This document shows, piece by piece, positions 1,086-62,582 of a stretch of 64,000 nt of DNA. This DNA is from Acidobacteriota bacterium (GTDB lineage: Bacteria > Acidobacteriota > UBA6911): the NCBI GenBank assembly GCA_963664705.1, contig OY761556.1, positions 3,808,001-3,872,000 on the forward strand, given 5' to 3'. Under the pieces are notes generated by a model. That model was not told where the DNA came from and searched no databases. It saw only the letters and a program-made list of their open reading frames with translations. Every line of letters begins with the position of its first letter. Position 1 is the first letter of the stretch. Position numbers and translations under genes: made by a program.

Positions 1086-1134
1086 AAAATTCTCCTATCA
1101 GCAATTGTGCCCAAATTCCGGGTACCGCACGGAA

Positions 1135-1761: not shown

Positions 1762-1803
1762 ATTCAACTCCAAATAAAATTGTCCAAAGCCATCGGCCTG
1801 AAC

Positions 1804-1827
1804 GCCGGCGAGACGCCGGTGTTCCCG
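1804..1827. repeat. REP-like palindrome, family B (GCCGGCGAGACGCCGGTGTTCCC)
   Basis: GC-rich hairpin; related copies at 7193-7216, 7273-7292 and 18972-18992. Confidence 0.6.
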
Positions 1828-1832
1828 GCAAG

Positions 1833-8090: not shown

Positions 8091-8684
8091 TCATTCGCGG
8101 TTAAACGAAGCCAATGCTTCCGTCAATACATAGGCCGCCTGTAAAGCCGACGTCGGGCAGAGAGGAAAACACTCTTTACAGTTCCAGCATTCCTTCGCTG
8201 CCAGTTCCGGAATGAAGCTGATAGATCGATGCGCGCCCCTGTCCACAAACCCAATCGCATCCAACCGCTTCACTTCGGTGCAGTAGCGGACGCAAAGCCC
8301 GCACAGAACACAGAACGACGCCTCCTTCTCGAAACGATTCCTGTCTGCCCCATATTCCTGAGCAAGGCTGACCAATTCGGCCGAATCCGGCGCATGCGCC
8401 ATCAACTCCTCCAGCAGAACCCGGCGGATCCGGTTCACTTTTTCCGATCTCGTTCGAATCACGAATCCGTTCTCCACCGGACGGACGCAGGCTGCAACAT
8501 AGTTGATGCGCCCGTTTACTTCCGCTTCCACCGTGCAGACACGGCAGGCCCCATAAGCTTCCAGCTTTTCGTGATGACACAGTGTCGGAATGGAAATCCC
8601 AGCTTCGCGGGCAGCATCAAGAATTGTCATCCCATCTTTAGCCCGGATTTCTTTCCCATCAATCGTTATGAAGATATCGTTCAC
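8091..8684 (-). CDS. bamI: Class II benzoyl-CoA reductase subunit BamI (NuoG N-terminal-like Fe-S protein)
   Basis: IPTLC..GACRVC..AAC [2Fe-2S] motif, CVLCGLCVRYC, CWNCKECFPLCPT; overlaps the bamH stop. Confidence 0.85.
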   Translation of the reverse strand: MNDIFITIDGKEIRAKDGMTILDAAREAGISIPTLCHHEKLEAYGACRVCTVEAEVNGRINYVAACVRPVENGFVIRTRSEKVNRIRRVLLEELMAHAPDSAELVSLAQEYGADRNRFEKEASFCVLCGLCVRYCTEVKRLDAIGFVDRGAHRSISFIPELAAKECWNCKECFPLCPTSALQAAYVLTEALASFNRE

Positions 8685-10609
8685 GGCCGTGTCTCCCTGG
8701 CCAGCATCCTGGCCTCTTCATGAATGGGAGGAGGAACCGGCTCGCCGGATAAACGACGGACCGCACCGAAACGCGACGGGCAGACCTCAAAGCAGGTCCC
8801 ACAGCTGTTGCATTTTCCCTGGTCAATCACGTGAATCTGGTTTTTACCGCCGCCAATCGCCTGCGTCGGACATTTCCTGAGGCAGATCATGCAGGCCTTG
8901 CACTTCTCCGGATCAATGCAATAGGAAACCAGCTGCTTGCAGACAAACGCCGGGCATTTTTTCCCCTTGATGTGCGCGTCGTATTCGTCGCGGAAATAGC
9001 GAATCGTGCTCAGCACCGGGTTCGGAGCGCTTCCGCCCAGCGCGCACATCGATGCCAGCTTTGTTGTCTCAGCCAGATCCTCCAGAAGCTCAACATCCCC
9101 TTCTTTGCCCTTCCCCTGGCTGATGTTCGTTAAAATTTTGAGCATCTGCCGGATGCCTTCCCGGCACGGCGTGCATTTGCCGCACGATTCCTCGGCTAGA
9201 AAATCCAAAAAATACCTGGCGACATCAATCATGCAGGTATCTTCATCCATCACGATCATGCCGCCCGATCCCATGATGGCGCCCACTTTTGCCAGCTCAT
9301 CAAAATCAACCCCGATATCGAGGAATTGTTCGGGAATGCAACCACCGGAGGGGCCGCCGGTCTGCACCGCCTTGAACTTCTTTCCTTTGGGGATACCACC
9401 GCCTACCCTGTAAATGATGTCCCTCAGAGTAATCCCCATAGGTACTTCGACGAGGCCGGTATTGTTTACCTTGCCGACGAGCGAGAATATTTTCGTCCCC
9501 TTGCTCCGGCCTGTTCCGATCGATGCAAGAAACTCCGGACCATTGTTGATAATCAGCGGAATATTGGCCCATGTTTCAACATTGTTGATATTGGTGGGTT
9601 TTCCGTGGAGTCCTCTTACGGCAGGGAATGGCGGCCGGGGACGAGGTTCGCCTGGCTTTCCTTCAAGCGACATGAGAAGCGCCGTCTCTTCACCGCAGAC
9701 AAACGCCCCTGCCCCCCGATGCACATGAACAGAAAAATTAAAGCCGCTGCCGAGAATATTCTCTCCAAGCAAGCCATACTCTTTGGCTTGCTTAATGGCA
9801 ATCGTGACATTCTCAACGGCTAGCGGGTATTCCTGTCGAACATAAATGTAGCCTTCATTGGCGCCGATGGCATACGCGCCAATTGTGAGGCCCTCCAGAA
9901 CCGCATGCGGATTTCCTTCAAGCAGCGCCCTATCCATGAACGCGCCCGGATCACCCTCGTCCGCATTCACTACAACGTACTTGATGTCACCCGCACTCTT
10001 GCGGGCAAATTCCCACTTCAACCCGGACGGAAATCCGGCACCACCGCGGCCACGCAATCCGGATGACTTTACCCCTTCAATTATTTGCTCCGGCGTCATT
10101 TGAAATAAGGCTTCCATCAACGCGGAATAGCCGCCGACCGCGAAATAGCTGTCGATACTTTTGGGATCAAGTTTGATGTTGTTTCCGAGGAGAAGCCGCC
10201 GTTGATATTTGTAAAAAGGAATTTCTGATTCCTGAACCGACTTTTCGCTGGTAATGGGATCCACATAGAGCAGTCGATCGATGACCTTCCTGTTTACAAT
10301 CGTTTCAGATACGATTTCTGCCGCATCCCTGGCCTGCGCCTGTACATAACAGGTCTCCTCAGGGTAAATCACCATGATGGGCCCGCGTTCACAGAAGCCC
10401 GGGCAGCCCGTTTCCCGAAGATCGACAACCTCCGTATTCAATCCCTTCTTTCTGATCTCACCTCTCAGGGCTGTGACAAGTGCAGTGGCACCCAACGCAA
10501 TGCAGCCGGTTCCAGTACACACGGCAATACAAGCCTTTTGCGGATTGTCTCTGGCGATTAGCTCTTTCCGGAACTCTTCCAGTTCATCGGGCGTATTCAG
10601 CCTTGGCAT
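8681..10609 (-). CDS. bamH: BamH (NuoF-like NAD(H)/FMN-binding subunit)
   Basis: SGLRGRGGAGFP, NADEGDPG, FVCGEETAL, ESCGKCTPCREG, C-terminal 2x[4Fe-4S]. Confidence 0.9.
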   Translation of the reverse strand: MPRLNTPDELEEFRKELIARDNPQKACIAVCTGTGCIALGATALVTALRGEIRKKGLNTEVVDLRETGCPGFCERGPIMVIYPEETCYVQAQARDAAEIVSETIVNRKVIDRLLYVDPITSEKSVQESEIPFYKYQRRLLLGNNIKLDPKSIDSYFAVGGYSALMEALFQMTPEQIIEGVKSSGLRGRGGAGFPSGLKWEFARKSAGDIKYVVVNADEGDPGAFMDRALLEGNPHAVLEGLTIGAYAIGANEGYIYVRQEYPLAVENVTIAIKQAKEYGLLGENILGSGFNFSVHVHRGAGAFVCGEETALLMSLEGKPGEPRPRPPFPAVRGLHGKPTNINNVETWANIPLIINNGPEFLASIGTGRSKGTKIFSLVGKVNNTGLVEVPMGITLRDIIYRVGGGIPKGKKFKAVQTGGPSGGCIPEQFLDIGVDFDELAKVGAIMGSGGMIVMDEDTCMIDVARYFLDFLAEESCGKCTPCREGIRQMLKILTNISQGKGKEGDVELLEDLAETTKLASMCALGGSAPNPVLSTIRYFRDEYDAHIKGKKCPAFVCKQLVSYCIDPEKCKACMICLRKCPTQAIGGGKNQIHVIDQGKCNSCGTCFEVCPSRFGAVRRLSGEPVPPPIHEEARMLARETRP

Positions 10610-10618
10610 ACACAATCC

Positions 10619-11071
10619 TTACTCGTAATGTTTCAGCACCTCTTGAGAGCTCGACGGGGACATCTTTCCGTGATAGTCACCATCGATTACCATCACAGGC
10701 CCCAGTGCGCAGCAACCGACACAGCCCACAGTCTCCAGGCTAAAACGATATTCGGAGTCCGTTTCTCCTGGGCCGACTCCGATCAGATCCTGCACGGAAT
10801 CGAGCAGCCGCGCCGCGCCACGCACGTGGCAGGCTGTACCCGTGCACACATGAATTTCATGGCGGCCTTTCGGGACGAGGCTGAAAGCCTTATAAAAGGT
10901 CACAATGTGCTGAATCCGGCTGAGCGGCACTTTGAGCCTAAGGCTGACCTTTTCAATAGCCTCGTCTGGAAGCCATCGATTCTCGCGTTGAATCTCGAGG
11001 AGAATCTGGATGAGCGAACCGGAATCGTCCGGATACTTCCCGATAATTTCCTCAATCCTTGCGTTGTCCAT
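10619..11071 (-). CDS. bamG: BamG (NuoE-like [2Fe-2S] subunit)
   Basis: CTGTACHVRG and CVGCCALGP motifs. Confidence 0.9.
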   Translation of the reverse strand: MDNARIEEIIGKYPDDSGSLIQILLEIQRENRWLPDEAIEKVSLRLKVPLSRIQHIVTFYKAFSLVPKGRHEIHVCTGTACHVRGAARLLDSVQDLIGVGPGETDSEYRFSLETVGCVGCCALGPVMVIDGDYHGKMSPSSSQEVLKHYE

Positions 11072-11081
11072 ATGTCCTGTT

Positions 11082-11168
11082 ATTTAGATTTCAAATTTCA
11101 GATTACGGATTTCAGATTTCAGATGAAGACCTGTTGATCTGAAATCTGAAGTCTGGAATCGTGAATCG
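11082..11168. repeat. Heptamer inverted array (ATTTCAG)n...(CTGAAAT)n overlapping the bamF 3' end
   Basis: Same 7-mer family as 5872-5960; translates as the TIPDFRFQINRSSSEI tail. Confidence 0.7.
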
Positions 11169-11918
11169 CTTTTGGCTCTCGTCAAATTTCGTCAGGCCCT
11201 GCCTCGCGGAATTATTCAAATGCCTCGCAACAACCGGGGCAGGCATCCCCAGAATTCCCGAAAGCTCTCCAGTCGATCGTGGTTGCTCTTTCAGGAGGGC
11301 TAGGATCTCGGCAATCGTCAGTTTCTCTGCAATGAGTTCCTCGAAGAGCCGCATCACCCCTTCACTGCCGAAGTAGGCCTCATACTCTTCCGCTGAGTTG
11401 CAGCGCGTCCGCAGACGTTCCCTCTCCACCAACCGAATGTATGGAATCAATTTCGTAATTGCTTCCAGCTTGAACCGCAGTGCTCCCTTTTCAATTCCTT
11501 CGCCAGCCCCGATGGGTCCCAACTCGCGCAGCGTCCTTGAAAAGTCATTCATGACTTCAGCGAACCGGATCCCCTCGCCGGCAGAAACCTGTTCAATCCT
11601 CAGTCGTTCAGGATTGAGCCCGATGAGCCCGAGCATCTTCTTGCAAATCTGCACCATCGCATATGCGTGGTGATTGCCATCGGTGATGTAGTGGCACTCG
11701 TTCAGGTGACACCCGCCAATGAATACACCGTCCGATCCATTGGAGAAGGCACGGAAGACAAATGCCAGATCGACACGTCCGCTGCACATGACCCGGATCA
11801 GTTTGATATCGGTTGCGTATTGTTGTCTGGAGACTCCAGCGAGATCGGCAGCGCCGTACGCTCACCAGTTACATACGAAACCAATAACCCTTGGTTTAAA
11901 ATTGGCCTCTGCTCTCAT
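11112..11918 (-). CDS. bamF: BamF (MvhD-like [2Fe-2S] selenoprotein, 268 aa, Sec at codon 19)
   Basis: ATG at 11918 with GAGGGG RBS reads MRAEANFKPRVIGFVCNW-TGA-AYGAADLAG...RVMCSGRVD, in frame with ORF 11112..11789; TGA at 11862-11864 occupies the second Cys/Sec position of the MvhD CxxC/U motif. Confidence 0.9.
11815..11861 (-). promoter_or_regulatory. Candidate bacterial SECIS element
   Basis: After the UGA: GCGTA...TACGC base pairing and an apical CTGGA-GTC-TCCAG hairpin whose loop starts about 27 nt downstream. Confidence 0.55.
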
Positions 11919-11960
11919 TTTGGCCCCTCACTTAACATTTCACGTTGGACGTTGGAACGC

Positions 11961-14900
11961 TTATGCCACAAAAAGCGCAGCATCGATCTGATCAATAATG
12001 GCCTCATCCGTGTAATGCTTCAGAACAATTGCGCCGGTTGCGCATTTTGTGTTGCAAAGCCCATCCCCCTTGCAGAGGATAGGATTTACCTTTGCCTTCC
12101 GCCCCTTTTCCGATTGGTAAAACTCAATGGCACCATAGGTACACGCGGTGATGCAGGCGCCGCACGACACACACAGGTCCTCGTTAACATCACACACGGA
12201 TCCCGAAGCCGTGACAGTGTCATGCGAGAGCAATGTAACGGCTCGCCCTGCAGCTCCATAAGCCTGGCTGACCGCTTCGGTAATATGCTTCGGGTAATGT
12301 GCAGTCCCACACAAATACACGCCCTCGGCCCCAAAATCGACGGGGCGCAACTTGACATGCGCTTCCTGGAAAAACCCGTCAGGATTCAAAGTAACCTTGA
12401 ACAGCGCAGCAATTTCCTTATTCCCTGAAGAGGGAATGACCGCCGCGGCCAATACGAGCGCATCGGCGTCGATCCCAAGCTCTGTTCCTAAAATGGGATC
12501 CGGCACCGTCACCCGCAGTACGCTTCGGCCATTCTCCTCAACAGCGTCCACTTGAGGCTTTGCATCTGCCTCGTAGCGGATAAATCGCACATTCCGGTTG
12601 GATGCTTCGCGGTAATAGTCCTCGCGAAAGCCATACGCGCGAATATCCCGAAAAAGGACATAGACATCCGCGGCCGGGTTGATTTCTTTGAGTTTTAAAG
12701 CGTTTTTAATGGCATGGCTGCAGCAGATGCGCGCGCAATAATTGCGATCCTCCTGCCTGCAGCCCACACACTGAATCATTGCTATCGTTTGAGCGCCGGA
12801 AATGCGTTCATCATTTCGCGCTATTCTCTCTTCCAGTTCAAGCTGCGTTAGCACTCTGTCGTTCTGTCCATACAGGTACTCAGTCGGCTTGTATTCATCC
12901 GATCCGGTGGCAAGCACCGTGACGCCGTGCTTAATGCGCAAAATTGTGCCTCTGGACTTGAGAGTGGTAACAAAATTTCCGACATAGCCTGCATTCTCAG
13001 TAATTGTTGTGCCGGTATAGACGTGAACGAGAGGATGTCGATATACCTGACTGACAATTCCCGTGAGATAGGCCTGAACATCCAAGCCTTCCAGTGTGTA
13101 GTGAATTCTCCGGGCAACGCCGCCAAGGTCTTCCTCTCTTTCCACGAGGTACACTTCATATCCCTGGTTGGCGATACTCAACGCGCTGCTCATCCCCGCG
13201 AGCCCTCCGCCCACCACCAGGGCTTTCTTATTCACAGGAAGATCAAACTCCTGCAATGGTTCCAGGTGAGTAGCGCGGGCAACGGCCATTCGGATAATGT
13301 CCTTGGCCTTTCGCGTCGCATCTTCCTTTTCCTTGGAATGAACCCACGAACAGTGCTCCCGGATATTCGCCATGTCGTAGAAGTACTGATTGATTCCTGC
13401 TTCACGGAGCGTATCGCGGAAAAGCGGTTCATGCGTACGCGGAGTGCAGGCTGCGACCACGACGCGGTTAAGTCCTTTCTCGCGGATGGAGGTCGCAAGT
13501 CTTTGCGCGGCATCCGTCGAACAGATAAAGAGGCTCTCTTCTGCGTGAGCAACATTGGGCAGGCTCAATGCATATTCAACGGCAGAGGGAACATTGACGA
13601 CCCGTCCGATGTTGGCGCCACAGTGGCACACATAAACGCCGACTTTGGGTTCCTCCTTGGAGACATCCCGTTCCGGCGGATACACTCTCTGCTCCGCAAG
13701 CTTGCCCCTGCGGTACCCAAGGAGTTCCCCGCATTGTGATCCCGCGCCGCAGGCAGTCACAACCGATTCAGGAATATCGATAGGCCCTTGAAAGGCGCCG
13801 CTGATGAAGATGCCAGGGCGCGAGGTCTTCATCGGATTCACAGGATCTGTCTGGCAGAACCCATGGCTGTTCAAATCAATGCCAAACTTGGCAGCCAAAC
13901 CCTGGAAATCTTTGGGAGGATTCAATCCGACCGAAAGCACAACCATGTCGAACTCTTCCTCTTTTACTCCCTCATCCGGCGTGGAATAGCGGATTGTTAC
14001 GTTTTTGCTTCCGGGAATTTCCTTTCCAATGGACGTATAGCTCCGGATAAACCGGATACCGGGCAGCTTTTCGGCTCTCTGGTAGAAGCGCTCGAAATCC
14101 TTTCCATAGGATCGAATATCGTTGTGAAAAATGGTGCACTCTGCCTCCGCGTCGTGGTCCTTTGTGAGGATCACCTGCTTCTGAGTATAGGTGCAGCAGA
14201 CCGCGGAGCAGTAACTGCGCCCGCCGGGAATCACCTGGCGGGATCCGACGCAATGAACCCATGCAATTTTGTGCGGATGTTTTTTATCCGTCACGCGCCG
14301 GATTTCTCCCTCATAGGGACCGGTGGCACAGAGCAGCCGTTCATAGTCCAGGCTGGTTACTACGTTTTCATACTTGCCGTAACCGTAATCTTCGCGCAGC
14401 TTCGGGTCGAACGGCTCAAAACCAGGGGAGAGGATGATGGCGCCAACCTTGACCTCCATCTTTTCTGTGGTCTGATGGAAATCGATCGCGTTGTTTTTAC
14501 AGACGCTCGTGCAGATTGTGCATTTCTGCTCTTTAAGATATAGACAACTGTCATCTATATACGTAACCAGCGGGATAGCCTGCGAAAAATATATGTGGAT
14601 GGCCTTATTGGAGGAAATGTCCTGGTTGAAGGGATCAGGGTATTTGACCGGGCAATACTCGACACACACCGTGCAGCCGGTGCAGCGCTCTTCAACAACA
14701 TACCGAGGCCTCTTGGCCAGGGTAACCCTGAAATCACCGGCTTTGCCTTCGACGCTGTCCACTTCCGTGTAGGTCAGGATCTCAATATTCGGATGACGGC
14801 TGCACTCCACGAATTTAGGAGATTCGATACACATCGAGCAGTCATTGGTAGGAAATGTCTTGTCAAGTTGAGACATATGCCCGCCAATGGTGGGAGACTT

Positions 14901-15029
14901 CTCAACCAGGTAAACCTTGAAGCCGGCTGTGGCAAGGTCAAGGGCAGCCTGAATCCCGCTGATTCCGCCGCCCACTACCATGACATCTCCGTAATTACCG
15001 TTTGGGCTCAACCTCACTTCATTTGCCAC
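11961..15029 (-). CDS. bamE: BamE (HdrA-like flavin electron-bifurcating subunit)
   Basis: Two FAD-binding GGG motifs, LDKTFPTNDCSMC, CVGSR..YCSAVCC, VCHCGANI, AACTPRTHE, NIREHCSWVH, C-terminal ferredoxin. Confidence 0.92.
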   Translation of the reverse strand: MANEVRLSPNGNYGDVMVVGGGISGIQAALDLATAGFKVYLVEKSPTIGGHMSQLDKTFPTNDCSMCIESPKFVECSRHPNIEILTYTEVDSVEGKAGDFRVTLAKRPRYVVEERCTGCTVCVEYCPVKYPDPFNQDISSNKAIHIYFSQAIPLVTYIDDSCLYLKEQKCTICTSVCKNNAIDFHQTTEKMEVKVGAIILSPGFEPFDPKLREDYGYGKYENVVTSLDYERLLCATGPYEGEIRRVTDKKHPHKIAWVHCVGSRQVIPGGRSYCSAVCCTYTQKQVILTKDHDAEAECTIFHNDIRSYGKDFERFYQRAEKLPGIRFIRSYTSIGKEIPGSKNVTIRYSTPDEGVKEEEFDMVVLSVGLNPPKDFQGLAAKFGIDLNSHGFCQTDPVNPMKTSRPGIFISGAFQGPIDIPESVVTACGAGSQCGELLGYRRGKLAEQRVYPPERDVSKEEPKVGVYVCHCGANIGRVVNVPSAVEYALSLPNVAHAEESLFICSTDAAQRLATSIREKGLNRVVVAACTPRTHEPLFRDTLREAGINQYFYDMANIREHCSWVHSKEKEDATRKAKDIIRMAVARATHLEPLQEFDLPVNKKALVVGGGLAGMSSALSIANQGYEVYLVEREEDLGGVARRIHYTLEGLDVQAYLTGIVSQVYRHPLVHVYTGTTITENAGYVGNFVTTLKSRGTILRIKHGVTVLATGSDEYKPTEYLYGQNDRVLTQLELEERIARNDERISGAQTIAMIQCVGCRQEDRNYCARICCSHAIKNALKLKEINPAADVYVLFRDIRAYGFREDYYREASNRNVRFIRYEADAKPQVDAVEENGRSVLRVTVPDPILGTELGIDADALVLAAAVIPSSGNKEIAALFKVTLNPDGFFQEAHVKLRPVDFGAEGVYLCGTAHYPKHITEAVSQAYGAAGRAVTLLSHDTVTASGSVCDVNEDLCVSCGACITACTYGAIEFYQSEKGRKAKVNPILCKGDGLCNTKCATGAIVLKHYTDEAIIDQIDAALFVA

Positions 15030-15078
15030 GTTGCTTTGTCTCCAATGCCTTTTCGCCCCAGCTGGCTCTCCGGCCCCG

Positions 15079-16230
15079 CTAGATGAGTGGCTCGATAATC
15101 TCGGTGATTTCCTTCACCTCAATCGCATCGCTGTCATCACGATTCATTCGGCTGTCTTCAAAATTCGTAATGCAGTAAGGACAGGCTGTAACCAGAGTCC
15201 GGGCTCCAGTCTCAACAGCCTGTGCCAACCGGAGATCGGAAAACCGCTCTCCTTTCGGCGTTTCCATCCAGATTCGTCCTCCGCCGCCCCCGCAGCACAT
15301 GCTGTCCACTCTGGCATCCGGCATTTCGCGCACTTGAAGCCCGGGAATCCTTTTCAGAATTTCCCTCGGCTGTTCGTAAATGCCATTGTGCCGTCCGAGA
15401 TAGCATGGATCATGGTAGGTAGCCGATGCCTCCAGGCTTCCATTCAACTGAAGCCTTCCGGAATCCATCAGTTCCAATAAAAACTGACTGATATGCACAA
15501 CCTCAAAGTGAACCTTGAATTCCGCATACTCATTCTTGAAGGCCTGATAGCAATGGGGGGATGAGACCAATATCTTCTTCACGCCGGCATCGATGAAGGT
15601 TTTGATGTTCTCCTTGGCCAGTTTACGGAACAAATTTTCGTCGCCGGCCTTGCGGATGCTTTCACCGCAACAGCTTTCCTGCTCGCCGAGGATACCGAAT
15701 TTCACGCCCGCCTTATTGAGGATACTGACTGTGGATTTGGCCGCTCTTTTTAGCCTCGCATCGTAACTGAGATAGCAGCAGGGGAAATACAGGAGTTCCA
15801 TGCCCTCTTCAAAAAGGCTTACATTCAGGCCCCAGGCCCAGTTTGCACGTTTGGCTCTTTCCTCGCTGAGTGGATTCCCGACGCCGCTCAGGCTTGCGCT
15901 GACACCGCGGATGGGACGAACGGAATTCGGAAAAACTCCAAATTCAGTGGCAACACGTCGGGATGCAACTCCGACTTCAATGATTCCAACACCTCGCGGG
16001 CACCGCTGGGGACACCGGCCACAGGTTGTACAGCGCCAGATTTCCTCGGTTTCAATTTCCGTCAGTCCGAATGTTGCCTGACGGATAAGACGGCGCATGC
16101 TGAAAGAGCGAACGCGGTTCCACGGGCAAACGGTGTCGCACAGTCCGCACTGATAGCAGTATTTGAAGGCTTCGCCGCCCTGGGCGCGTATGCTATCGAC
16201 GATTTCCTTGTAGTCGGCTACATTTTCCAC
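15079..16230 (-). CDS. bamD: BamD (HdrB/C/D-like CCG-domain Fe-S protein)
   Basis: CYQCGLCDTVCP, CTTCGRCPQRCPRG, ESCCG, YHDPCYLGR, CCGGGGG, TACPYC. Confidence 0.9.
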   Translation of the reverse strand: MENVADYKEIVDSIRAQGGEAFKYCYQCGLCDTVCPWNRVRSFSMRRLIRQATFGLTEIETEEIWRCTTCGRCPQRCPRGVGIIEVGVASRRVATEFGVFPNSVRPIRGVSASLSGVGNPLSEERAKRANWAWGLNVSLFEEGMELLYFPCCYLSYDARLKRAAKSTVSILNKAGVKFGILGEQESCCGESIRKAGDENLFRKLAKENIKTFIDAGVKKILVSSPHCYQAFKNEYAEFKVHFEVVHISQFLLELMDSGRLQLNGSLEASATYHDPCYLGRHNGIYEQPREILKRIPGLQVREMPDARVDSMCCGGGGGRIWMETPKGERFSDLRLAQAVETGARTLVTACPYCITNFEDSRMNRDDSDAIEVKEITEIIEPLI

Positions 16231-16281
16231 TTTGCATTCCTATTTTGCGCGAGCCCCACCGAGACGGCGGAGTTCCCTGCT

Positions 16282-16821
16282 TTAGCCCTTCTTCGACATT
16301 CGAGCGATGGCGTCCATCACCTGCTGCAATCCGTACTTCCTGGCCAGGGCCTCAAGGCCGATTTCCATTTCCTGTGGCTTTTCCGTTTCCTCGACTTCCT
16401 CTTCCCGCTCCTCGTAAATCAGTGCCTTGTTGAGACACCACTGCACGCACATCGGTTCTGCAAGCGGCGGATCCGATTCGCACATATCGCACTTCAGCGG
16501 CAAGCCAGAATCCGGCTCTCGAAAGATATCCCTGGAGGAGCAGGAAGCGCGGCAGAAGCCGCATTCGTCATACTCCTTTCCGTCAATGATGTAGACATCT
16601 CTGCCCATACATTCGGCGGGCGCATGTTCTCCGGCATACACAGGGATGAACACATCGCGCAGAGGATCCCGCATCATCCGGATTCGCGACCGCGCAGGGT
16701 TGTTGCTGCTGTATTTCGGCGTCGCGTGGAAAGCGGAGCAGATCACTTCGCAGGCCCTGCAGCCATTGCATTTGTCCGCGTCAATCCGGATCATTTTGAT
16801 TTTTTTCCTGACTTTACCCAT
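16282..16821 (-). CDS. bamC: BamC (electron-transfer Fe-S subunit)
   Basis: CNGCRACEVICS, CGFCRASC, KCDMC...PMCVQWC; ATG at 16821 overlaps the bamB stop. Confidence 0.9.
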   Translation of the reverse strand: MGKVRKKIKMIRIDADKCNGCRACEVICSAFHATPKYSSNNPARSRIRMMRDPLRDVFIPVYAGEHAPAECMGRDVYIIDGKEYDECGFCRASCSSRDIFREPDSGLPLKCDMCESDPPLAEPMCVQWCLNKALIYEEREEEVEETEKPQEMEIGLEALARKYGLQQVMDAIARMSKKG

Positions 16822-18775
16822 TTTGAATAATCCCTCTCTGCTGCAGGTCGTCGGCAATGTACGTCATATCCAGTTCTTTCAGTGACTCCCGGGTGGGAAT
16901 GCCCTGTTCGTCCCAGCCCTTAAAACTGTAATAGGAATCGAGCAGCTGTTTCTCCAGTTCGGGAAAACGCTTTTTCCAGTGGTCTTCGGGCGGGACTTCG
17001 TCGGATCTTCTCATCCCTTTGCGGATGTTTACGGCTCTGAGCAGCGTGCGATTTCTCTTTGTAATCTTCATCAGCCCGGCTTCATCGATATCCATTCCGG
17101 TGGCTGCGGAAATGAAGGATGGGTAGTTGTGAATATGGTACGGCGGCTTCAGTGGGAATGAAGACAGGCCCGCACACATGCCCATGGCATCATCGACGTA
17201 GTGCATCATCTCCTGCCAGTCGACGATATCGCAGCTCGCTGCAACATCCGGGTAATTGGGGTTGGAGTACTCGCCGCGCATCTCCCACTTGAGGACATAT
17301 TCCTTGAATCGGTTGTCCGGAACCTGAACCCAGTCCTTTACAAAATCTTCCCTCTCCTGGATGGTCGGAAAGGGTGCCTGCGGGAACTGTCCTTCGATCT
17401 GGGTAATGTTGATCTTCTCCCCTGTGGAATACATCAGGAAGTAAACGGGATTCAGCATCCCGAGTTTAAGCGGAAGCTGCTCCTGCTTCTTGATGTTGTT
17501 ATGAGCGAATTCCTCGGCACCACTGCCGATCTGTTTGGCCGCCCAGTAAGTTCCATTGGCAAGGACATCTCCGATTCCTTCGCGCCGGACGATCCGGTCC
17601 AGCAGCCAATAGAATCGGCCTTCGTTGTCAGAAGGCATCCCCTCGAACTGCTCAGGTTTCAGGATGCCGGCTTCGAGCAGCTCGAGCCCAAAAGCCATTA
17701 CTTGCGGCGCGGAAAAGCCGTCAACGCCGTACTCCGTAGCCCGTTGGGCAATTTTGAAACCAAAGTCGAGGTCTGCATACGCTGCCATCGTGTAGGTGAG
17801 TTTTGTGAAGCATTTCATCATGTACGTGGAGATGCCCGGCACCGCGATCGTCGCGCCGCATTTCATCGGACAGTTGTAGCAGCTGATCAATCGCTTTCGG
17901 ACTGCAGTTTGTGTTTCTTCCCACTTCTTTTCGACTTCCTTCGTCCAGAAGTCCTTGCGGCGCGTGCGGGAATTCCCCCACATGAAGTTTGTGGTGTGCC
18001 ACTCTTCATCAATGAGCTTCATTTCCTGCGGCGAACCAAGACCGGCAAGAATCGGCATGACACCCGGGATCGGCTTATCTTCACGATCCCTGATGTATTG
18101 GAGAACCTGCTGGCAAAGCCCATGGAATTCCGCTGGCTTGGCAAGGTTGACATCTTTGGTGCCGCGAACCGCAATCGCCTTGATGCCCTTATCACCCATA
18201 ACGGCACCAATCCCGCCACGGCTTGCACTTGAGCGTCCCTGCTCGATCGAAGCAAAGTAGACCCTGTGTTCACCCGCCATCCCGATAGCCGCAACCTGGG
18301 CCCGAGGTTCCTTCAGTTCCCGGCGAATCTCCTCCGCCGTTTCATTGGCACCCTTGCCTCGCAGATGCGTTGCATCGCGTATTTCAACCTTATCATTATT
18401 GATCCAGATGTAGACGAGGTTGGGCGACTTGCCGCGAAAAATGACCTTGTCATAGCCCGCATATTTCAATTCGGGCGCCCAGAATCCGCCCATCATGGAG
18501 TAGGCGGTAAAAAGCGTCTGCGGTGAAAAAGTCGTAACGATCGTACGATTCGCACCGGGCGCCGGAGTGGCGCAGAGAAGACCCGTGCTGAAAATCAGAA
18601 GATTATCCGGAGAGAAAGCATCCGTATCAGGGGGGACCCGATCCCACAGAATCTTGGTGCTTGTTCCCAAGCCTCCGAGATGCATTTCGGTCAGTTTGGG
18701 ATCTGTTTCGACACGATCGATGCTCCCTCTGGATAGATCTATTTCCAGGTTAAACCCTGTCTCCCCATACCTCAT
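16814..18775 (-). CDS. bamB: BamB, tungsten-pterin active-site subunit of class II benzoyl-CoA reductase (AOR family)
   Basis: 653 aa; MRYGETG start, ASIEQGRSSASRGG, SCYNCPMKC, MMKCFTKL (Cys322), EKINITQIEGQFPQ, LSSFPLKPPYHIHNY; closely matches the recalled Geobacter BamB sequence. Confidence 0.95.
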   Translation of the reverse strand: MRYGETGFNLEIDLSRGSIDRVETDPKLTEMHLGGLGTSTKILWDRVPPDTDAFSPDNLLIFSTGLLCATPAPGANRTIVTTFSPQTLFTAYSMMGGFWAPELKYAGYDKVIFRGKSPNLVYIWINNDKVEIRDATHLRGKGANETAEEIRRELKEPRAQVAAIGMAGEHRVYFASIEQGRSSASRGGIGAVMGDKGIKAIAVRGTKDVNLAKPAEFHGLCQQVLQYIRDREDKPIPGVMPILAGLGSPQEMKLIDEEWHTTNFMWGNSRTRRKDFWTKEVEKKWEETQTAVRKRLISCYNCPMKCGATIAVPGISTYMMKCFTKLTYTMAAYADLDFGFKIAQRATEYGVDGFSAPQVMAFGLELLEAGILKPEQFEGMPSDNEGRFYWLLDRIVRREGIGDVLANGTYWAAKQIGSGAEEFAHNNIKKQEQLPLKLGMLNPVYFLMYSTGEKINITQIEGQFPQAPFPTIQEREDFVKDWVQVPDNRFKEYVLKWEMRGEYSNPNYPDVAASCDIVDWQEMMHYVDDAMGMCAGLSSFPLKPPYHIHNYPSFISAATGMDIDEAGLMKITKRNRTLLRAVNIRKGMRRSDEVPPEDHWKKRFPELEKQLLDSYYSFKGWDEQGIPTRESLKELDMTYIADDLQQRGIIQNG

Positions 18776-18865
18776 TCTGCAGCCCCCTGTTTGGACACGT
18801 ATCCCGCCGGAAAAGCCCGGAGCACAGCCACCCTCGCCGATGCCGCATATTGTCTGTCGGAAGCA

Positions 18866-18953
18866 AAGACCTTGGAGCGCGGTGGTTTGCCACCGCCTTC
18901 ACTCTTTTGTGGTCTTTTAAAGGCGGCGGCAAGCTGCCGCACTCCAAGGTCTT
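18866..18953. repeat. REP doublet, family A
   Basis: AAGACCTTGGAG...CTCCAAGGTCTT terminal inverted repeat with GGCGGCAAGCTGCCGCACTCC. Confidence 0.75.
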
Positions 18954-19038
18954 CGCCCTAGGCAAATAATAGGCGGGACGCCGGCACTCCGGCTCCAAGG
19001 TCGCACAAAGCCCCTAAGCGTACCTGCGTTGGAGAAGG

Positions 19039-19683
19039 CTAGATTTCCTTCTCCAAGGGCAACATTTGAATCATGCTAAAGCCCAAAGACTTGAAATAGG
19101 AAATAAGATCGCCATCATGCCATTCCACCAGAGTCTGGATCTTCCGGACGTTCTTCTTCCGAAAATGGTCCACCAGCGTGGCCCCCAGCTTGCGGCCCAC
19201 GCCTTTCCCCTGGTATTCAGGATCAACGCCCAAAATCAGGATCCAGCCGGTCATTTCAGACCGGCCGAATTCCCAGCGCCGGACTTCCCCAATCACAAAA
19301 CCAACCAGTTTCTGGTCGATCTCCGCCCCCAGGATCATCAACGGATCACCGTGCTGCAGGTGGTAAACCGTTGTATCTTTCAGGGAGACAAGCTTCTCCT
19401 TGTCGGAATCCTGCTCCCCTACGATTTTTGCCTGAATGCGAAGGATGTCTTCGAGGTCGTCCATCCCAAGGAATCGGATGGTAATGGCTGCCGAAATATC
19501 GGTCCAAAGTTTAGTGCGGCCGACTTGATTGTAGTGGATCTTTCCCTCTGCGCGAAGTACTTCCAGGTATTTGGCTACAGTGTGGCGGGTTAGGTTCAGT
19601 CGCTCGGCGAGTTCTTCCATTTGAATGCCGGACTTGGCGGACTGGAGGATCTTCAGGATATTGTTCTGGATGTTTTCTTCCAT
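19039..19683 (-). CDS. Winged-HTH / GNAT acetyltransferase fusion (putative regulator)
   Basis: N-terminal ELAERLNLTRHTVAKYLEVL..EG HTH; C-terminal GNAT motif A LGVDPEYQGKGVG and YFKSLGF. Confidence 0.8.
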   Translation of the reverse strand: MEENIQNNILKILQSAKSGIQMEELAERLNLTRHTVAKYLEVLRAEGKIHYNQVGRTKLWTDISAAITIRFLGMDDLEDILRIQAKIVGEQDSDKEKLVSLKDTTVYHLQHGDPLMILGAEIDQKLVGFVIGEVRRWEFGRSEMTGWILILGVDPEYQGKGVGRKLGATLVDHFRKKNVRKIQTLVEWHDGDLISYFKSLGFSMIQMLPLEKEI

Positions 19684-19701
19684 ACAACACTCGGCGCCAT
19701 G

Positions 19702-19753
19702 GGTTACCGATATTGGTTACCGATAGAGTAGTCAGCACGCCGAGGAGTGTCAA
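19702..19753 (-). promoter_or_regulatory. Sigma70-like promoter TTGACA-17-TACTCT with a tandem TATCGGTAACC repeat over the start site
   Basis: -35 at 19748-19753, -10 at 19725-19730; plus-strand GGTTACCGATA at 19702-19712 and 19715-19725. Confidence 0.65.
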
Positions 19754-19809
19754 GGAGAATTCGTGGGATTCATAGTTAAAAGCTTCTAACCACGAATCCC
19801 ACAAAAGGC

Positions 19810-20604
19810 CTATTTATCCTCCCAGACAGCCTTGCGGCGCTCGATAAAAGCCATGATCCCTTCATTGCCATCATGGCTCGCCAGCACTTCAGTCACATAC
19901 TGGCGCTCGAGACTATCCAGCGTATCACCAAGTGCAACAAGGATGCCGGAGCCTGTGCGCGCAACCTTCGCAGCCTGGCGAATTGCAAAAGCAGACAGTG
20001 GACGCAGAGTATTGCGGTACCAGTCGAGCATCTCTTCATCGAGGCTCCCGCCTGAAAACAGAGCGGAGACAAATCCCACCCGCTCCGCCGTTGCGGCGTC
20101 GATTGTCGCTCCGGTCAGAATCATCCTTTCCGCCAGTGCGCCCCCCAGCCGATGGGCACCGATGGCGCCCAGAACCGGCGGAAAAACTCCAAGTTTGATT
20201 TCCGGGCATCCGAAATTTGCGCTGGGAGCGGCAAAAACAAGGTGACAGGCAAGAGCCAATTCAAATGCGCCGCCAAGACAGGCCCCTTCCACCAAAGCTA
20301 CAACAGGGACTGGATAGGACGCCACTTGACGAATCATCGCATGAAACCCGGCGAGCATGGCCGGAGCCTGATCCTTTTTATGTTCTTCCACTGAAGCCCC
20401 GAAAGAAAAATGACTCCCCGCCCCGCGAATAACCACCATGCGAAGGCGAGGGCTATTCGCATGAGCGGAAAGCGCTTCGGAGAGTGCCTTCATCATCTCC
20501 ATCGAAAGCACGTTGCCTTTTGGTTTATCGAGCACCAGGCGAAGCAGCGTATCCTCTTCAAGAAGGCTGATGTTTACAACGGGCGAAGCAGTTTCTGTGG
20601 GCAT
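19810..20604 (-). CDS. dch: Cyclohexa-1,5-diene-1-carbonyl-CoA hydratase (Dch/BamR)
   Basis: Crotonase fold, PKGNVL, HFSFGASVEEH, CLGGAFEL, PEIKLGVFPP, SHDGNEG; start at 20604 with AAGGAG RBS. Confidence 0.9.
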   Translation of the reverse strand: MPTETASPVVNISLLEEDTLLRLVLDKPKGNVLSMEMMKALSEALSAHANSPRLRMVVIRGAGSHFSFGASVEEHKKDQAPAMLAGFHAMIRQVASYPVPVVALVEGACLGGAFELALACHLVFAAPSANFGCPEIKLGVFPPVLGAIGAHRLGGALAERMILTGATIDAATAERVGFVSALFSGGSLDEEMLDWYRNTLRPLSAFAIRQAAKVARTGSGILVALGDTLDSLERQYVTEVLASHDGNEGIMAFIERRKAVWEDK

Positions 20605-20693
20605 AAAGACTCCTTGGCTACTATTGGATTTCGGATTATGGATCGGGATTCCGGATTGAGGTCGAATTGGCTTTTTCAATCCGGAATCACAAT

Positions 20694-21743
20694 CTACGCA
20701 CGCGGATCCATTACCATTCGCTTCTCCAATTTGTGGGCAGCCATGTCGGCAAGATAATCATTCACCTTGGACATGGGGCCATAAGCAATAAATGGATCCA
20801 GCTTCACCTTTCCCTCCTGAATCAAACGGAGTACTCCGGGATAAACTTCCGGAGGACATCCCCAGGTTCCATGCAGCGTTGCATCAAACGCCATCAGGTT
20901 GGACAGCCTCACATCAATTTTCGTGGGCGTGTATCCCACCTGCAGCATCGTCGCACCTCGTTCGAGGAGTCCATAAGCAGTTACCTGTCCGGGTGCGCTG
21001 CCGCTGCATTCGAAAATCTTGTACTGGAAGGTGGGCGCGCCTTTGGCAAATGCTCGCACCTGCTTGCGGAGTTCCTTCGGATCCAGGTTTGCAAGATTGA
21101 TAATCTGCTCTGCTCCATATTGGGCAATCAAAGCCAGCCGTTCGACAACGATATCGCAGGCAAGAACTCGCGCCCCGAGTGCGCTGGCAATCTGCACTAC
21201 AAAACCTCCGACGCCGCCAGCCCCGATAACAATTGCGACATCACCCGGGCTGAGACTGGCACGAAGGATCGCCTGGTATGCGGTGGACACGGCATCCGCC
21301 ACCACCGAAAGAGCGGCCGGGTTGTCCATCGAGCCGATCTTGATCAGCGGAGGGGCGGGCACAAGGAAGTGAGTTGAGAATCCACCGTCGATATCGTTCC
21401 CCGGCATTTTCTGATTCGGGCATGCGTTCCCTCGTCCCGCTTTGCAAAACGGGCACTCGCCGCAAGGAAGCACGGCCGGCACCAGAACAATGTTGCCAAC
21501 CAGCGGTTCAAAATATTTTCCGGCTTCAACAACGCGCCCAACGGCCTCATGTCCCAATACGATGGGAGTTCCTTTCTTCGTTGGCACGGATCCATCGGCG
21601 TAGCCCAAGTCTGTGTGACAAAGCCCGCAGGCGATCACTTCGACAATAGCTTCAGTCGGTCCGGGAGCCGGAATCGGCAAGGGACGGCGCACCAATGGGG
21701 ACTTCGGAGTCTCCAAAACATATGCTTCAGCGGTCACTGGCAT
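20694..21743 (-). CDS. had: 6-hydroxycyclohex-1-ene-1-carbonyl-CoA dehydrogenase (Had/BamQ)
   Basis: Zn-ADH motifs CGLCHTD, GHE, CGECPFC...C, QKMPGND, SNLMAFDA, WGCPP. Confidence 0.92.
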   Translation of the reverse strand: MPVTAEAYVLETPKSPLVRRPLPIPAPGPTEAIVEVIACGLCHTDLGYADGSVPTKKGTPIVLGHEAVGRVVEAGKYFEPLVGNIVLVPAVLPCGECPFCKAGRGNACPNQKMPGNDIDGGFSTHFLVPAPPLIKIGSMDNPAALSVVADAVSTAYQAILRASLSPGDVAIVIGAGGVGGFVVQIASALGARVLACDIVVERLALIAQYGAEQIINLANLDPKELRKQVRAFAKGAPTFQYKIFECSGSAPGQVTAYGLLERGATMLQVGYTPTKIDVRLSNLMAFDATLHGTWGCPPEVYPGVLRLIQEGKVKLDPFIAYGPMSKVNDYLADMAAHKLEKRMVMDPRA

Positions 21744-21769
21744 GTCTTTTCTCCATTTCCTGGAAGGTT

Positions 21770-21853
21770 CTTGGAGTGCGCAGGCTTGCTTGCGCCTTCA
21801 CAACAATCGTGAAGGCAAAGCCCAAAGGCGGCAGCAAGCCGCCGCACTCCAAG
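21770..21853. repeat. REP doublet, family A
   Basis: CTTGGAGTGCG...CGCACTCCAAG between oah and had. Confidence 0.75.
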
Positions 21854-21855
21854 CA

Positions 21856-23016
21856 TTATTTCTTGCTGCCTGCTGGTTGAGGAGCTCCCAACACCTGTTC
21901 CATGAACCATTCGTCGACGAGAGCGCCTTCCGAGATGAGCTGACGATATTTGATGAAGTTGATGGTATCCGCGTTTGTTATCTTCTTGGTGTTAAACGCG
22001 CCGAAGCCAAGGAAGGCTTCGCCCATCATATTCGCGGCAAGCCAGTGCCGGTTGGGATTCTTGATCTGATCCCAGAAGAACTTCTTCTTATTCCGGATCC
22101 CATCAATAGACATGATCAGGCATCCGGGGAAGAGATTTGCAAAGGTCCAGACAATTTTGTCTACTTCGGCATCGAGGAGGGAAAAATCGTAATCGTTGTT
22201 CTTCAGCTTTTCATTTACCCAGGCGCGCGCCTTTTTCAAATCATCACCGGTTTTATACTCGCCATAAACGATTTCCCCATTCTGGACATAGGTATCGGTT
22301 ATGATTTGAGGATTCCGCACCCACTCCCCCTTCTCGTCCTTGAGAACAGGAACAACCTTGGACACAAGGTTTTTCGCCTTCATTTTGTAGGCGCTCCACA
22401 TTTCACAACTGATGCAGTTCCACATGGCATCTTCAGCGGTAAGGAACCAGGGCAGGAAATCCGAGGCACCTCCAACGGGAGCGGATCCATGCCGCGGGCC
22501 GGCCTGCCCGAATATGGCTAAATCCGATGTCACCGCGATATCGCAAGCCAGCCCGATCTCCTGGCCACCGGCCACCCTCATGCCGTTTACACGGCAGATA
22601 ACCGGTTTCTTGCACATCAGAATGGAGTCCACCATATTGTTGAAGAGCTCCATATACGCGCCGTACTCCTCGGGTCGTTTGCTGTAATATTCCGAGTATT
22701 CCTTGGTATTGCCGCCGGTGCAGAAGGCATTAGGTCCGGTCCCGGTAAATACGACCGCAACCACTTCCCGGTCGACGGAGGAATTCTCGAATCCAGCAAT
22801 AACGCCCTTCACCATTTCGGTTGTATAGGAATTGTATTGCGCGGGGTTGTTCAGCCGAATCCAGGCCACAAAAAGCCCTGGGACGACATTCCCCTTCGGG
22901 TCCTTCAATGGCGTTTTTTCATATACTACGCAAGGGGAATCCACGCCCCAATGCTCCGGGCCGAATCTGCTGTGATCCTTTTTCCCATGCTCTCTCGGCA
23001 TCCAATCTAGTCCCAT
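21856..23016 (-). CDS. bamA: 6-oxocyclohex-1-ene-1-carbonyl-CoA hydrolase (Oah/BamA)
   Basis: QYNSYTTEMVKG, FCTGGNTKEY, RVNGMRVAGGQE, FGQAGPRHGSAP, WLAANMMGEA. Confidence 0.95.
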   Translation of the reverse strand: MGLDWMPREHGKKDHSRFGPEHWGVDSPCVVYEKTPLKDPKGNVVPGLFVAWIRLNNPAQYNSYTTEMVKGVIAGFENSSVDREVVAVVFTGTGPNAFCTGGNTKEYSEYYSKRPEEYGAYMELFNNMVDSILMCKKPVICRVNGMRVAGGQEIGLACDIAVTSDLAIFGQAGPRHGSAPVGGASDFLPWFLTAEDAMWNCISCEMWSAYKMKAKNLVSKVVPVLKDEKGEWVRNPQIITDTYVQNGEIVYGEYKTGDDLKKARAWVNEKLKNNDYDFSLLDAEVDKIVWTFANLFPGCLIMSIDGIRNKKKFFWDQIKNPNRHWLAANMMGEAFLGFGAFNTKKITNADTINFIKYRQLISEGALVDEWFMEQVLGAPQPAGSKK

Positions 23017-23285
23017 ATTGATCTCCTTGCGGAATGAAGAGAATGGTTCTGAGACACCTACAGGCGGGCGAATGCCGCCTTCAGAACTGGTTAGTTCGAG
23101 GTTGAAAAAAGGAACAGAGCAACTTATGACTAATCCTTTTCTTAATCTCCTGTCAAGGGGATTTGCTCATTTGGGCACCAAAGAAATGGACGACGCTGAA
23201 GACTACGAAGAAAAAAATAATATTTTTCCTCAGTGTCTCTGCTTTTTCCCGTGTTCTCCGGAGCTCGCATGATAGGATTCACCGG

Positions 23286-61288: not shown

Positions 61289-61325
61289 AGCCGTTAGTGG
61301 GCGGTGAGCAGTAGGCAGTGACGCA

Positions 61326-62498: not shown

Positions 62499-62502
62499 GA
62501 TT

Positions 62503-62582
62503 TCAATTTACGATTTACGATTGACGAATGACGATTGAAAAGCGACGTGTCTTGCTCCATTCGTCAATCGTAAATCGTAAAT
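62503..62582. repeat. Heptamer inverted array (ATTTACG)n...(CGTAAAT)n within the DUF72 3' end
   Basis: A related degenerate copy lies at 29636-29704. Confidence 0.65.

Follow-up and report, generated by a model that had tools for sequence, protein, structure and literature searches.

A complete class II benzoyl-CoA reductase operon, very probably native to a UBA6911-family Acidobacteriota chromosome

We analysed a stretch of 64,000 nucleotides (the window; contig OY761556.1 of assembly GCA_963664705.1, positions 3,808,001 to 3,872,000) from the genome of an Acidobacteriota bacterium, which we call G000. It contains the genes bamBCDEFGHI of a class II benzoyl-coenzyme A (CoA) reductase (BCR): the full set of subunits is there, clustered and intact. 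We are confident that these genes form a complete operon which is native to the chromosome of a member of family UBA6911, and that it likely serves the ATP-free dearomatisation of benzoyl-CoA under anoxia. The enzyme itself is a familiar one; what is new and little documented is the host lineage. This summary we consider well supported.

The strongest evidence comes from the catalytic subunit. BamB of the window aligns with BamB of Geobacter metallireducens (PDB 4Z3W) without a gap over residues 1-652 (1142 bits, E = 0), whereas the next structure of the AOR family matches it with 219 bits. In an alignment of 94 BamB-like rows we see that it retains E251, E257, H260, F264, C322, E461 and Q466 together with the cluster cysteines C299, C302, C306 and C534; that is, the tungsten ligand Cys322, the proton donors His260 and Glu251 and the cysteines of the 4Fe-4S cluster are all present. 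BamC is 62-88% identical to the gene that follows bamB in related loci.

The hallmark residues of BamD, BamE, BamF and BamH agree with the cryo-EM description of the Geobacter enzyme (bioRxiv 10.64898/2026.04.10.717634), which lists H230, W325, Y356 and a Cys-to-Ser exchange in BamD, selenocysteine (Sec) 19 in BamF and Asp219 in BamH. BamD of the window has H226, W321 and Y352, at a constant offset of 4, and likewise a Ser for a Cys of the CPHC motif. BamE has C64-x2-C67 and the lysine motif YCSAVCCTYTQK, and BamH retains Asp219. For BamD, BamE and BamH, the residues were matched by their offset and not by an alignment. In some members of the genus, BamH is fused to, or trailed by, a GltD-like module (1121 aa; L196:16152-19517 in genome G048, and L254).

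A preliminary description of this DNA had recognised bamF but not its true start, which is at 11918 and not at 11789, with an in-frame TGA read through at codon 19. The Sec encoded there coincides with Sec19 of G. metallireducens BamF. Downstream of the TGA lies a hairpin resembling a selenocysteine insertion sequence (SECIS); the same 13-mer occurs in 33 of 37 TGA-bearing bamF rows and in none of 13 Cys-bearing rows, some genomes being counted twice. The folding energy of the hairpin alone is not significant (z = -0.26). In a number of other loci codon 19 encodes Cys and the hairpin is lost (L034, L041, L046, L053, L062, L064, L036, L060, L061, L038, L012 and L203); these are betaproteobacterial, Bacteroidota and Myxococcota loci, plus two of the window's own lineage.

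The support genes that the preliminary description had proposed to seek elsewhere in the genome are indeed found. The genes selA, selB and selD and a tRNA-Sec stand together in one locus. A TupA-like ABC system, a candidate tungstate transporter, adjoins two AOR genes, although its TupA score of 230 bits is under the cut-off of 400. A glutaryl-CoA dehydrogenase matches the decarboxylating type with 493 bits, compared with 208 bits for the non-decarboxylating 3MPI. As side observations, ARAGORN calls three tRNA-SeC genes in G000, one of them beside selABD, and in L118:6507-8141 SelD is fused to a C-terminal domain of the carboxymuconolactone decarboxylase family.

The whole gene run lies on the minus strand, and its coordinates, obtained from open reading frame (ORF) calls and Pfam and NCBIfam profile searches, are those reported before (Table 1). 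From 23016 downward, it consists of oah, had, dch, a gene combining a winged helix-turn-helix (wHTH) with a GNAT domain, bamB-C-D-E-F-G-H-I, a short-chain dehydrogenase/reductase (SDR), a thiolase and a family III CoA-transferase. The preliminary description was right about the co-orientation of these genes but not about their strict contiguity, as the wHTH-GNAT gene, coding for 214 aa, separates dch from bamB. It also named the right genes but closed the cluster too early: the co-oriented run continues beyond the CoA-transferase with genes for a molybdopterin oxidoreductase, an Fe-S protein and an NrfD protein (132-4508) and, past the window edge, with a JAB-domain gene and then an ADP-forming acyl-CoA synthetase.

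Table 1. Features of the gene run and its flank (positions in the window)
Feature	Position	Strand	Evidence or remark
NrfD-type membrane anchor of molybdoenzyme	132-1085	-	profile match; 8 hydrophobic segments
4Fe-4S subunit of molybdoenzyme	1135-1773	-	profile matches
bis-MGD molybdopterin oxidoreductase, distant sister of PadB	1833-4508	-	profile matches, tree
family III CoA-transferase	4664-5857	-	456 bits vs 9BR7
thiolase, PcaF-like	5966-7168	-	PRK09050 593 bits, cut-off 605
SDR	7293-8081	-	Pfam adh_short
bamI, NuoG-N-like Fe-S subunit	8091-8684	-	profile matches
bamH, NuoF/HydB-like, with Trx and C-terminal ferredoxin domains	8681-10615	-	profile matches
bamG, NuoE/HydC-like	10619-11071	-	profile matches
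bamF, MvhD-like adaptor, C-terminal wHTH, Sec at codon 19	11112-11918	-	TGA 11862-11864
SECIS-like hairpin, 22 nt past TGA	11827-11839	-	13-mer kept among TGA-bearing bamF rows
bamE, fused double-HdrA bifurcating flavoprotein, 1022 aa	11961-15029	-	HdrA2 933 bits, three stretches
bamD, HdrBC-like high-potential output subunit	15079-16230	-	2x CxxCxxCxxxC (4Fe-4S) and CCG
bamC, polyferredoxin	16282-16857	-	Fer4; true start probably near bamB end
bamB, tungsten catalytic subunit (by homology)	16814-18775	-	1142 bits vs PDB 4Z3W
wHTH-GNAT protein, bamK-like, 214 aa	19039-19683	-	Pfam HTH_11 and Acetyltransf_1
divergent dienoyl-CoA hydratase resembling dch (bamR); start codon uncertain	19810-20679	-	top family TIGR03189
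had (bamQ), 6-hydroxycyclohex-1-ene-1-carbonyl-CoA dehydrogenase	20694-21743	-	TIGR03201 385 bits, cut-off 339
oah (bamA), 6-oxocyclohex-1-ene-1-carbonyl-CoA hydrolase	21856-23016	-	TIGR03200 535 bits, cut-off 464
uvrD/pcrA, conserved divergent flank of locus	23163-25592	+	UvrD identities, neighbourhood in relatives

Next to the reductase, the genes for ring opening and for the lower pathway can be recognised. Had is 40-47% identical to the Had proteins that adjoin bamB in other phyla, and a dch-like gene occupies the same position in relatives. The SDR, 87-93% conserved beside the cluster in relatives, is by its position likely a 3-hydroxypimelyl-CoA dehydrogenase. The PcaF-like thiolase is likely a 3-oxopimelyl-CoA thiolase; in several relatives, a pair of a thiolase and a DUF35 protein stands in its place. 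The closest solved relative of the family III CoA-transferase is succinate-hydroxymethylglutarate CoA-transferase (9BR7). The wHTH-GNAT gene precedes bamB in 7 of 8 Acidobacteriota-titled loci, and its product is likely a regulator; bamK of G. metallireducens is a benzoate-induced N-acetyltransferase (PMC1924859). A promoter scan gave fewer sites than shuffled sequences did.

We wanted to know which organism carries this operon. The guess of an Acidobacteriota host, made from the window alone, was borne out by RpoB. Host RpoB is 92-94% identical to that of six metagenome-assembled genomes (MAGs) titled Acidobacteriota. Identity falls to 86-87% in two further genera of the same family, to 69-71% in three more families of its class and to 62% in two additional Acidobacteriota lineages. 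Partial matches of 52-62% came from 14 genomes outside the phylum, and one further genome gave none. In the RpoB tree, a single-marker placement (29 rows, quick IQ-TREE, SH-aLRT support only), G000 and the six MAGs form a group of 7 rows (SH-aLRT 100) within a 14-row Acidobacteriota clade (100), apart from Desulfobacterota and Myxococcota. The host is therefore not to be sought in Desulfobacterota or Firmicutes, the placement that the preliminary description had raised against its own claim. One of the six relatives, L032 (whole-genome shotgun prefix JAFGIY), is among the family UBA6911 genomes of bioRxiv 10.1101/2021.04.09.439258. Together with the RpoB kinship, this assigns the host to family UBA6911 (subgroup 18); the genus is very likely UBA6911.

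The assembly around the operon appears sound. The window is part of a single contig of 6.89 Mb with a clean two-switch GC skew, and the genome is 98.15% complete. Furthermore, a short-read contig of 14,226 bases, probably from the same sample but assembled separately, matches window 9252-23477 with 0 differences and crosses the oah-uvrD junction. A chimera near 23.1 kb, which had been considered, was not found, as both this contig and the relatives span the junction: uvrD and oah are neighbours in 4 of 8 Acidobacteriota-titled loci (adjoining in L011, L012 and L031, one gene off in L048) and also in G005, G021, G022, G024 and G049. UvrD beside the cluster is 75-77% identical to that of Acidobacteriota-titled genomes, compared with 35% to a Syntrophobacteraceae genome. 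The tetranucleotide divergence of the operon is at the 45th percentile of 459 genome windows.

Next, we asked how widely BamB is distributed, counting it as present at E <= 1e-100. It occurs in 20 of the 30 genomes of the genus (in one at 62% over a cut 500 residues, in another split in two frames), in 1 of the 21 genomes from other genera of the family and in 0 of the 86 from other families of the class. Among 400 genomes sampled from the phylum besides G000, five have it, four of which come from two other families. In the tree of the 94 BamB rows, the window falls into a 12-row clade of its own lineage (support 100). Four other genus members cluster with a Desulfobacterales sequence, and one more stands apart. 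An approximately unbiased (AU) test on 51 of the 94 rows, with distant paralogs and near-duplicates left out and the tree seen beforehand, rejects a single BamB clade for the 14 genus rows (p = 0.004); one of these, L023, was assigned to the genus by title and BamB clade alone.

Of the four members grouped with the Desulfobacterales sequence, those in which the surroundings are visible (G021 and G022) keep the same gene order beside uvrD despite their different BamB branch, which suggests that the bam block was replaced in place within the genus. The ring-opening and downstream genes of G005 and G024 remain at uvrD with bamB-I on another contig, and the bam block of G047 has other neighbours. 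The genome scan found at least 679 BamB relatives. By record title, the best 80 of these comprise 45 loci of Desulfobacterota or delta-proteobacteria, 8 of Acidobacteriota, 8 that rank as Myxococcota (most titled only 'Deltaproteobacteria'), 7 of Pseudomonadota, 4 of Bacteroidota, 4 of Chloroflexota and 4 others, with Betaproteobacteria-titled records among them. As these loci belong to many phyla, class II BCR is broadly spread in MAGs; some short BamB contigs from MAGs may be misbinned. Among the matches listed, the closest outside sequences are Syntrophobacteraceae, Syntrophaceae and related records, with 80-82% identity. The block was probably gained long ago from a BamB pool dominated by Desulfobacterota and replaced at least once within the genus.

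BamB is also seen in other Acidobacteriota lineages (L111-L113, L024 and G473), at 64-76% identity and on separate branches; the phylum appears, from its sequences, to have gained BamB several times. In addition, there are divergent BamB paralogs (54-56% identity) in L026, L053, L058, L107 and L108 in which position 251 is Trp or Ser and position 257 is Asp. A canonical bamB adjoins some of them, and they could possibly have another substrate.

What kind of metabolism surrounds the operon? G000 encodes a single EtfAB. It also has two EMO-like proteins in which membrane segments at the N-terminus are combined with two 4Fe-4S motifs and CCG domains. An operon of alternative complex III (ACIII) and an A2-type (A-type) oxidase is present, as are NrfA and qNOR, and 33 ORFs have at least four CxxCH motifs, by motif count alone. 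COX1 is matched in 13 of the 20 bamB-positive genus genomes; one 'COX1' candidate of the motif scan turned out to be Rho. ORFs for multiheme c-type cytochromes, carrying as many as 43 CxxCH motifs, are clustered at 1.653-1.672, 2.505-2.509 and 4.70-4.91 Mb of G000, which suggests extracellular electron transfer. We found no match in G000 to dsrA, which is present in 10 of the 30 genus genomes and has no match in 12 of the 20 bamB-positive ones (several of them incomplete), nor to the acetyl-CoA synthase CdhC. None of the 7 HGD-D proteins of G000 is above a cut-off for class I BCR (bcrABCD/bzdNOPQ), and neither PaaA/C nor a Rieske ring-hydroxylase alpha subunit was found there; the bam operon is therefore the sole route of ring attack that we found. 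In addition, the AOR/WOR family is greatly expanded. G000 has 24 ORFs of the AOR family, a count that includes BamB and a gene split in two, and each of the 24 other genus genomes searched gave 11-29 matches, compared with 0 in 16 genomes of other families of the class. Two more long HdrA/MvhD loci (L184 and L185; G000 45-50 and 87-93 kb) adjoin methylene-tetrahydrofolate reductase genes, despite the missing CdhC.

While the genes present, the residues of the active site, the Sec codon, the host, the genes for support functions and the conservation within the genus are observations, the electron path and the pathway that follow are drawn by homology from the Geobacter enzyme (path scheme: bioRxiv 10.64898/2026.04.10.717634). 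Electrons of NADH and reduced ferredoxin would enter at BamGHI and pass through BamF with its Sec19 to the bifurcating FAD of BamE. From there, low-potential electrons would reach the tungsten centre of BamB through BamC and reduce benzoyl-CoA to the 1,5-dienoyl-CoA, while high-potential electrons would leave through BamD, the single electron-transferring flavoprotein (ETF) and an EMO-like membrane protein to the quinone pool. From the quinone pool, the electrons could pass on to nitrite through NrfA, to extracellular acceptors through the multiheme cytochromes, or to oxygen in traces. Dch, Had and Oah would cleave the ring open, SDR and thiolase would lead to glutaryl-CoA, and the decarboxylating glutaryl-CoA dehydrogenase encoded elsewhere in the genome would remove it, finishing to acetyl-CoA.

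Several observations weigh against this reading of the operon. Position 255 of BamB is Ile in the window, whereas His255 has been termed an invariant zinc ligand (PMC12096430). Dch scores 218 bits on TIGR03189, under the cut-off of 292. The genome is rated 6.18% contaminated despite being one contig. No benzoate-CoA ligase above the TIGR02262 cut-off exists in G000, and just 2 of the 30 genus genomes have one. Moreover, no ligase of G000 is more than 31% identical to 13 AMP-forming ligases of related loci (10 adjoining bamB, 2 TIGR02262-positive and 1 from a pad-like cluster). PadEFGHI, phenylglyoxylate dehydrogenase and HcrA are not found above cut-off in G000 either. As for the first point, His is found at position 255 in just 20 of the 94 BamB rows and is therefore neither invariant nor a defining residue. 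The missing ligase is softened by the fact that BamY of Geobacter is merely 19% identical to BclA of Thauera (PMC1924859), so that the TIGR02262 model may miss a benzoate ligase.

How benzoyl-CoA is formed is the least certain step of the pathway. We lean towards an entry via the ADP-forming acyl-CoA synthetase at the operon end or via a CoA-transferase. The synthetase is 77-92% conserved in relatives, and ADP-forming synthetases also flank the bam loci L060 and L050. Its frameshift is an assembly error, as contigs of four runs of one sample carry one extra base. A CoA-transferase has been proposed for G. bemidjiensis, where bamY is broken. An acetyl-CoA hydrolase/transferase family protein of 450 aa (window 50523-51875, minus strand), 27 kb from oah, is a candidate for benzoate activation by CoA transfer. 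An AMP-forming ligase that we failed to recognise is, in our view, the most doubtful of the entry routes.

The remaining route, from phenylalanine and phenylacetyl-CoA by way of the operon molybdoenzyme, seems rather unlikely to us, if a little less so than the unrecognised ligase. It amounts to a rival explanation in which the complex is genuine but fed by aromatic amino acids: IorAB would convert phenylpyruvate to phenylacetyl-CoA, a PadBCD-like Mo/Fe-S/NrfD enzyme would oxidise it, and a POR-type enzyme would form benzoyl-CoA. This is compatible with the main explanation and differs in the entry step. G000 does have IorAB, with IOR alpha above its cut-off, and an ESM Atlas cluster near the molybdoenzyme is auto-named 'related to phenylacetyl-CoA:acceptor oxidoreductase'. 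Furthermore, the molybdoenzyme occurs in 16 of the 20 bamB-positive and in none of the 10 bamB-negative genus genomes (these kin are not independent), and a POR-gamma/GltD/alpha/beta cluster of G000 is laid out like the one adjoining a PadB-like gene in L225. That cluster, however, is under the Pad cut-offs and is found in just 7 of the 30 genus genomes. The molybdoenzyme, predicted to be cytoplasmic since no Tat signal is seen, shares with PadBCD of Thauera and Aromatoleum the layout of Mo-bis-molybdopterin guanine dinucleotide (bis-MGD), 4Fe-4S and NrfD subunits and the neighbourhood of acyl-CoA metabolism. Yet its identity to the PadB of L226, which comes from a true pad cluster, is just 27-28%. 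It has a clade of its own, different active-site motifs and no padEFGHI alongside, and by these comparisons it is not a PadB ortholog. Searches of PDB and plasmids gave nothing above about 30% identity.

In 68 metagenome loci, the usual neighbours of the molybdoenzyme are a family III CoA-transferase (28 of 68) and FdhD, whereas bam, oah or pad genes stand beside it in few, nearly all of them close relatives of the window. A dicarboxylyl-CoA or another acyl-CoA near the lower pathway is a more likely substrate for it than phenylacetyl-CoA. Sediment metagenomes, as well as records named Planctomycetota, Zixibacteria and Deltaproteobacteria, hold members of this uncharacterised Mo-bis-MGD/Fe-S/NrfD family at 75-80% conservation. 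Relatives have an ORF of about 300 aa between CoA-transferase and molybdoenzyme, which is absent from G000 and without a match in Pfam or the Atlas; it may be a shadow frame.

Potentially, the complex could use a substituted aryl-CoA (hydroxy-, methyl- or amino-benzoyl-CoA) or run mainly in the oxidative direction, which would explain both the missing benzoate ligase and the divergent Dch; we consider this improbable. The lack of a recognised ligase in G000, the low score of Dch and the modest identity of Had to its bamB-linked counterparts in other phyla fit such a substrate, as do HcrA-like proteins of G000 with 667-716 bits (cut-off 995). HcrA-like genes, however, are equally frequent in bamB-negative genomes, Oah and Had are above their equivalog cut-offs, and the pocket positions that were checked in BamB are of the common type, unlike those of the divergent paralogs with Trp or Ser at 251. 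Misassembly or misbinning of Desulfobacterota DNA, or the recent arrival of a foreign island, might be suggested by the mostly Desulfobacterota and delta-proteobacterial outside relatives among the best 80 BamB loci and by the contamination estimate; this reading is refuted by the single chromosome, the host-like composition, the spanned junction, the same site in relatives and the lineage-specific BamB clade.

We therefore return to the native class II BCR operon and compare it with known systems. Like Bam[(BC)2DEFGHI]2 of G. metallireducens (4Z3W), it has eight subunits in the same order. Both share Cys322, His260, Glu251 and Glu257 of BamB, His, Trp, Tyr and the Cys-to-Ser exchange of BamD, Asp219 of BamH, Sec19 and the long wHTH form of BamF, and a bamK-like GNAT gene. 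G000 and G. metallireducens also have in common a decarboxylating-type glutaryl-CoA dehydrogenase, ETF, EMO-like proteins, an A-type oxidase and many multiheme cytochromes. They differ in that the host is an Acidobacteriota bacterium, that His255 is replaced by Ile, that no benzoate-CoA ligase is recognisable, and that G000 has one ETF instead of nine and no second copy of BamB. Moreover, ring-opening, reductase and lower-pathway genes, the Mo/Fe-S/NrfD enzyme and the ADP-forming synthetase form one co-oriented run in G000. Desulfosarcina cetonica and other sulfate reducers and syntrophs have the same class II complex, but G000 is without a match to dsrA or CdhC; in its metabolism it looks more like Geobacter than like a sulfate reducer or a syntroph. 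Family UBA6911 has been described as versatile in respiration (oxygen, nitrite ammonification, and sulfate in some; bioRxiv 10.1101/2021.04.09.439258).

The preliminary description had seen a dearomatising pathway in a phylum not known for it. We found no paper that places bamB or class II BCR in Acidobacteriota, although some of the searches were weak and earlier bam calls may stand in Table S3 of the UBA6911 paper; the accessible parts of PMC13328260, PMC2755013, PMC4453571, PMC11778308 and bioRxiv 2023.07.10.548433 and 2026.05.27.727921 have nothing on bam genes of Acidobacteriota. The surprise is smaller than thought, however. In one clause, the UBA6911 paper lists benzoate degradation for the genus as early as 2021, with no benzoate enzyme or BCR class named in the accessible main text ('benzoyl-CoA' and 'tungst' occur 0 times there). 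Full bam sets have been reported in Chloroflexota MAGs (PMC11362221), and BamB occurs in several phyla. A mangrove study assigns class I BCR to Acidobacteriota MAGs (PMC11704145). Reviews continue to assign class II BCR to strict anaerobes, with sulfate and iron reducers as the typical hosts (PMC12096430). We do not claim a first class II BCR in a facultative aerobe: the A2-type oxidase and ACIII are real, but Geobacter species carry caa3 oxidases as well. Because G. metallireducens itself encodes one (PMC2996986), the oxidase of the host neither proves a facultative lifestyle nor breaks the rule of strict anaerobes.

Elsewhere in the window, two families of palindromic repeats resembling repetitive extragenic palindromes lie at 73-120 and 11085-11155; one of them overlaps bamF at its 3' end and gave about 150 matches with the motifs tested, and the other gave 17. 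A cassette of DUF72, ImuB-like DinB and error-prone DnaE2 genes is found at 58313-63341 (minus strand), and a second DinB at 36877-38052.

In summary, class II BCR is stably established in a single genus of Acidobacteriota, where 20 of 30 genomes have it, and is near-absent from the rest of its class. The finding leaves the chemistry of benzoyl-CoA reduction unchanged, but it tells which enzyme underlies the 'benzoate' entry in the family description of 2021. The genomes of the genus come from freshwater sediments, springs and digesters. The finding also bears on how bamB, as a marker gene, is to be interpreted in contaminated or peat sediments. One may go further and see in genus UBA6911 an overlooked and widespread guild of aromatic degraders, with an oxygen-sensitive tungsten reductase in a redox-flexible cell that lacks sulfate reduction, class I BCR and a benzoate ligase, and fed by a new in-operon module of an ADP-forming aryl-CoA synthetase and an acyl-CoA-oxidising, membrane-bound molybdoenzyme; this is a tentative picture, and we hold it to be rather less probable than its opposite. 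Since the gene set is intact and also present in about two thirds of the genus, the lineage likely degrades aromatic compounds when oxygen is absent.

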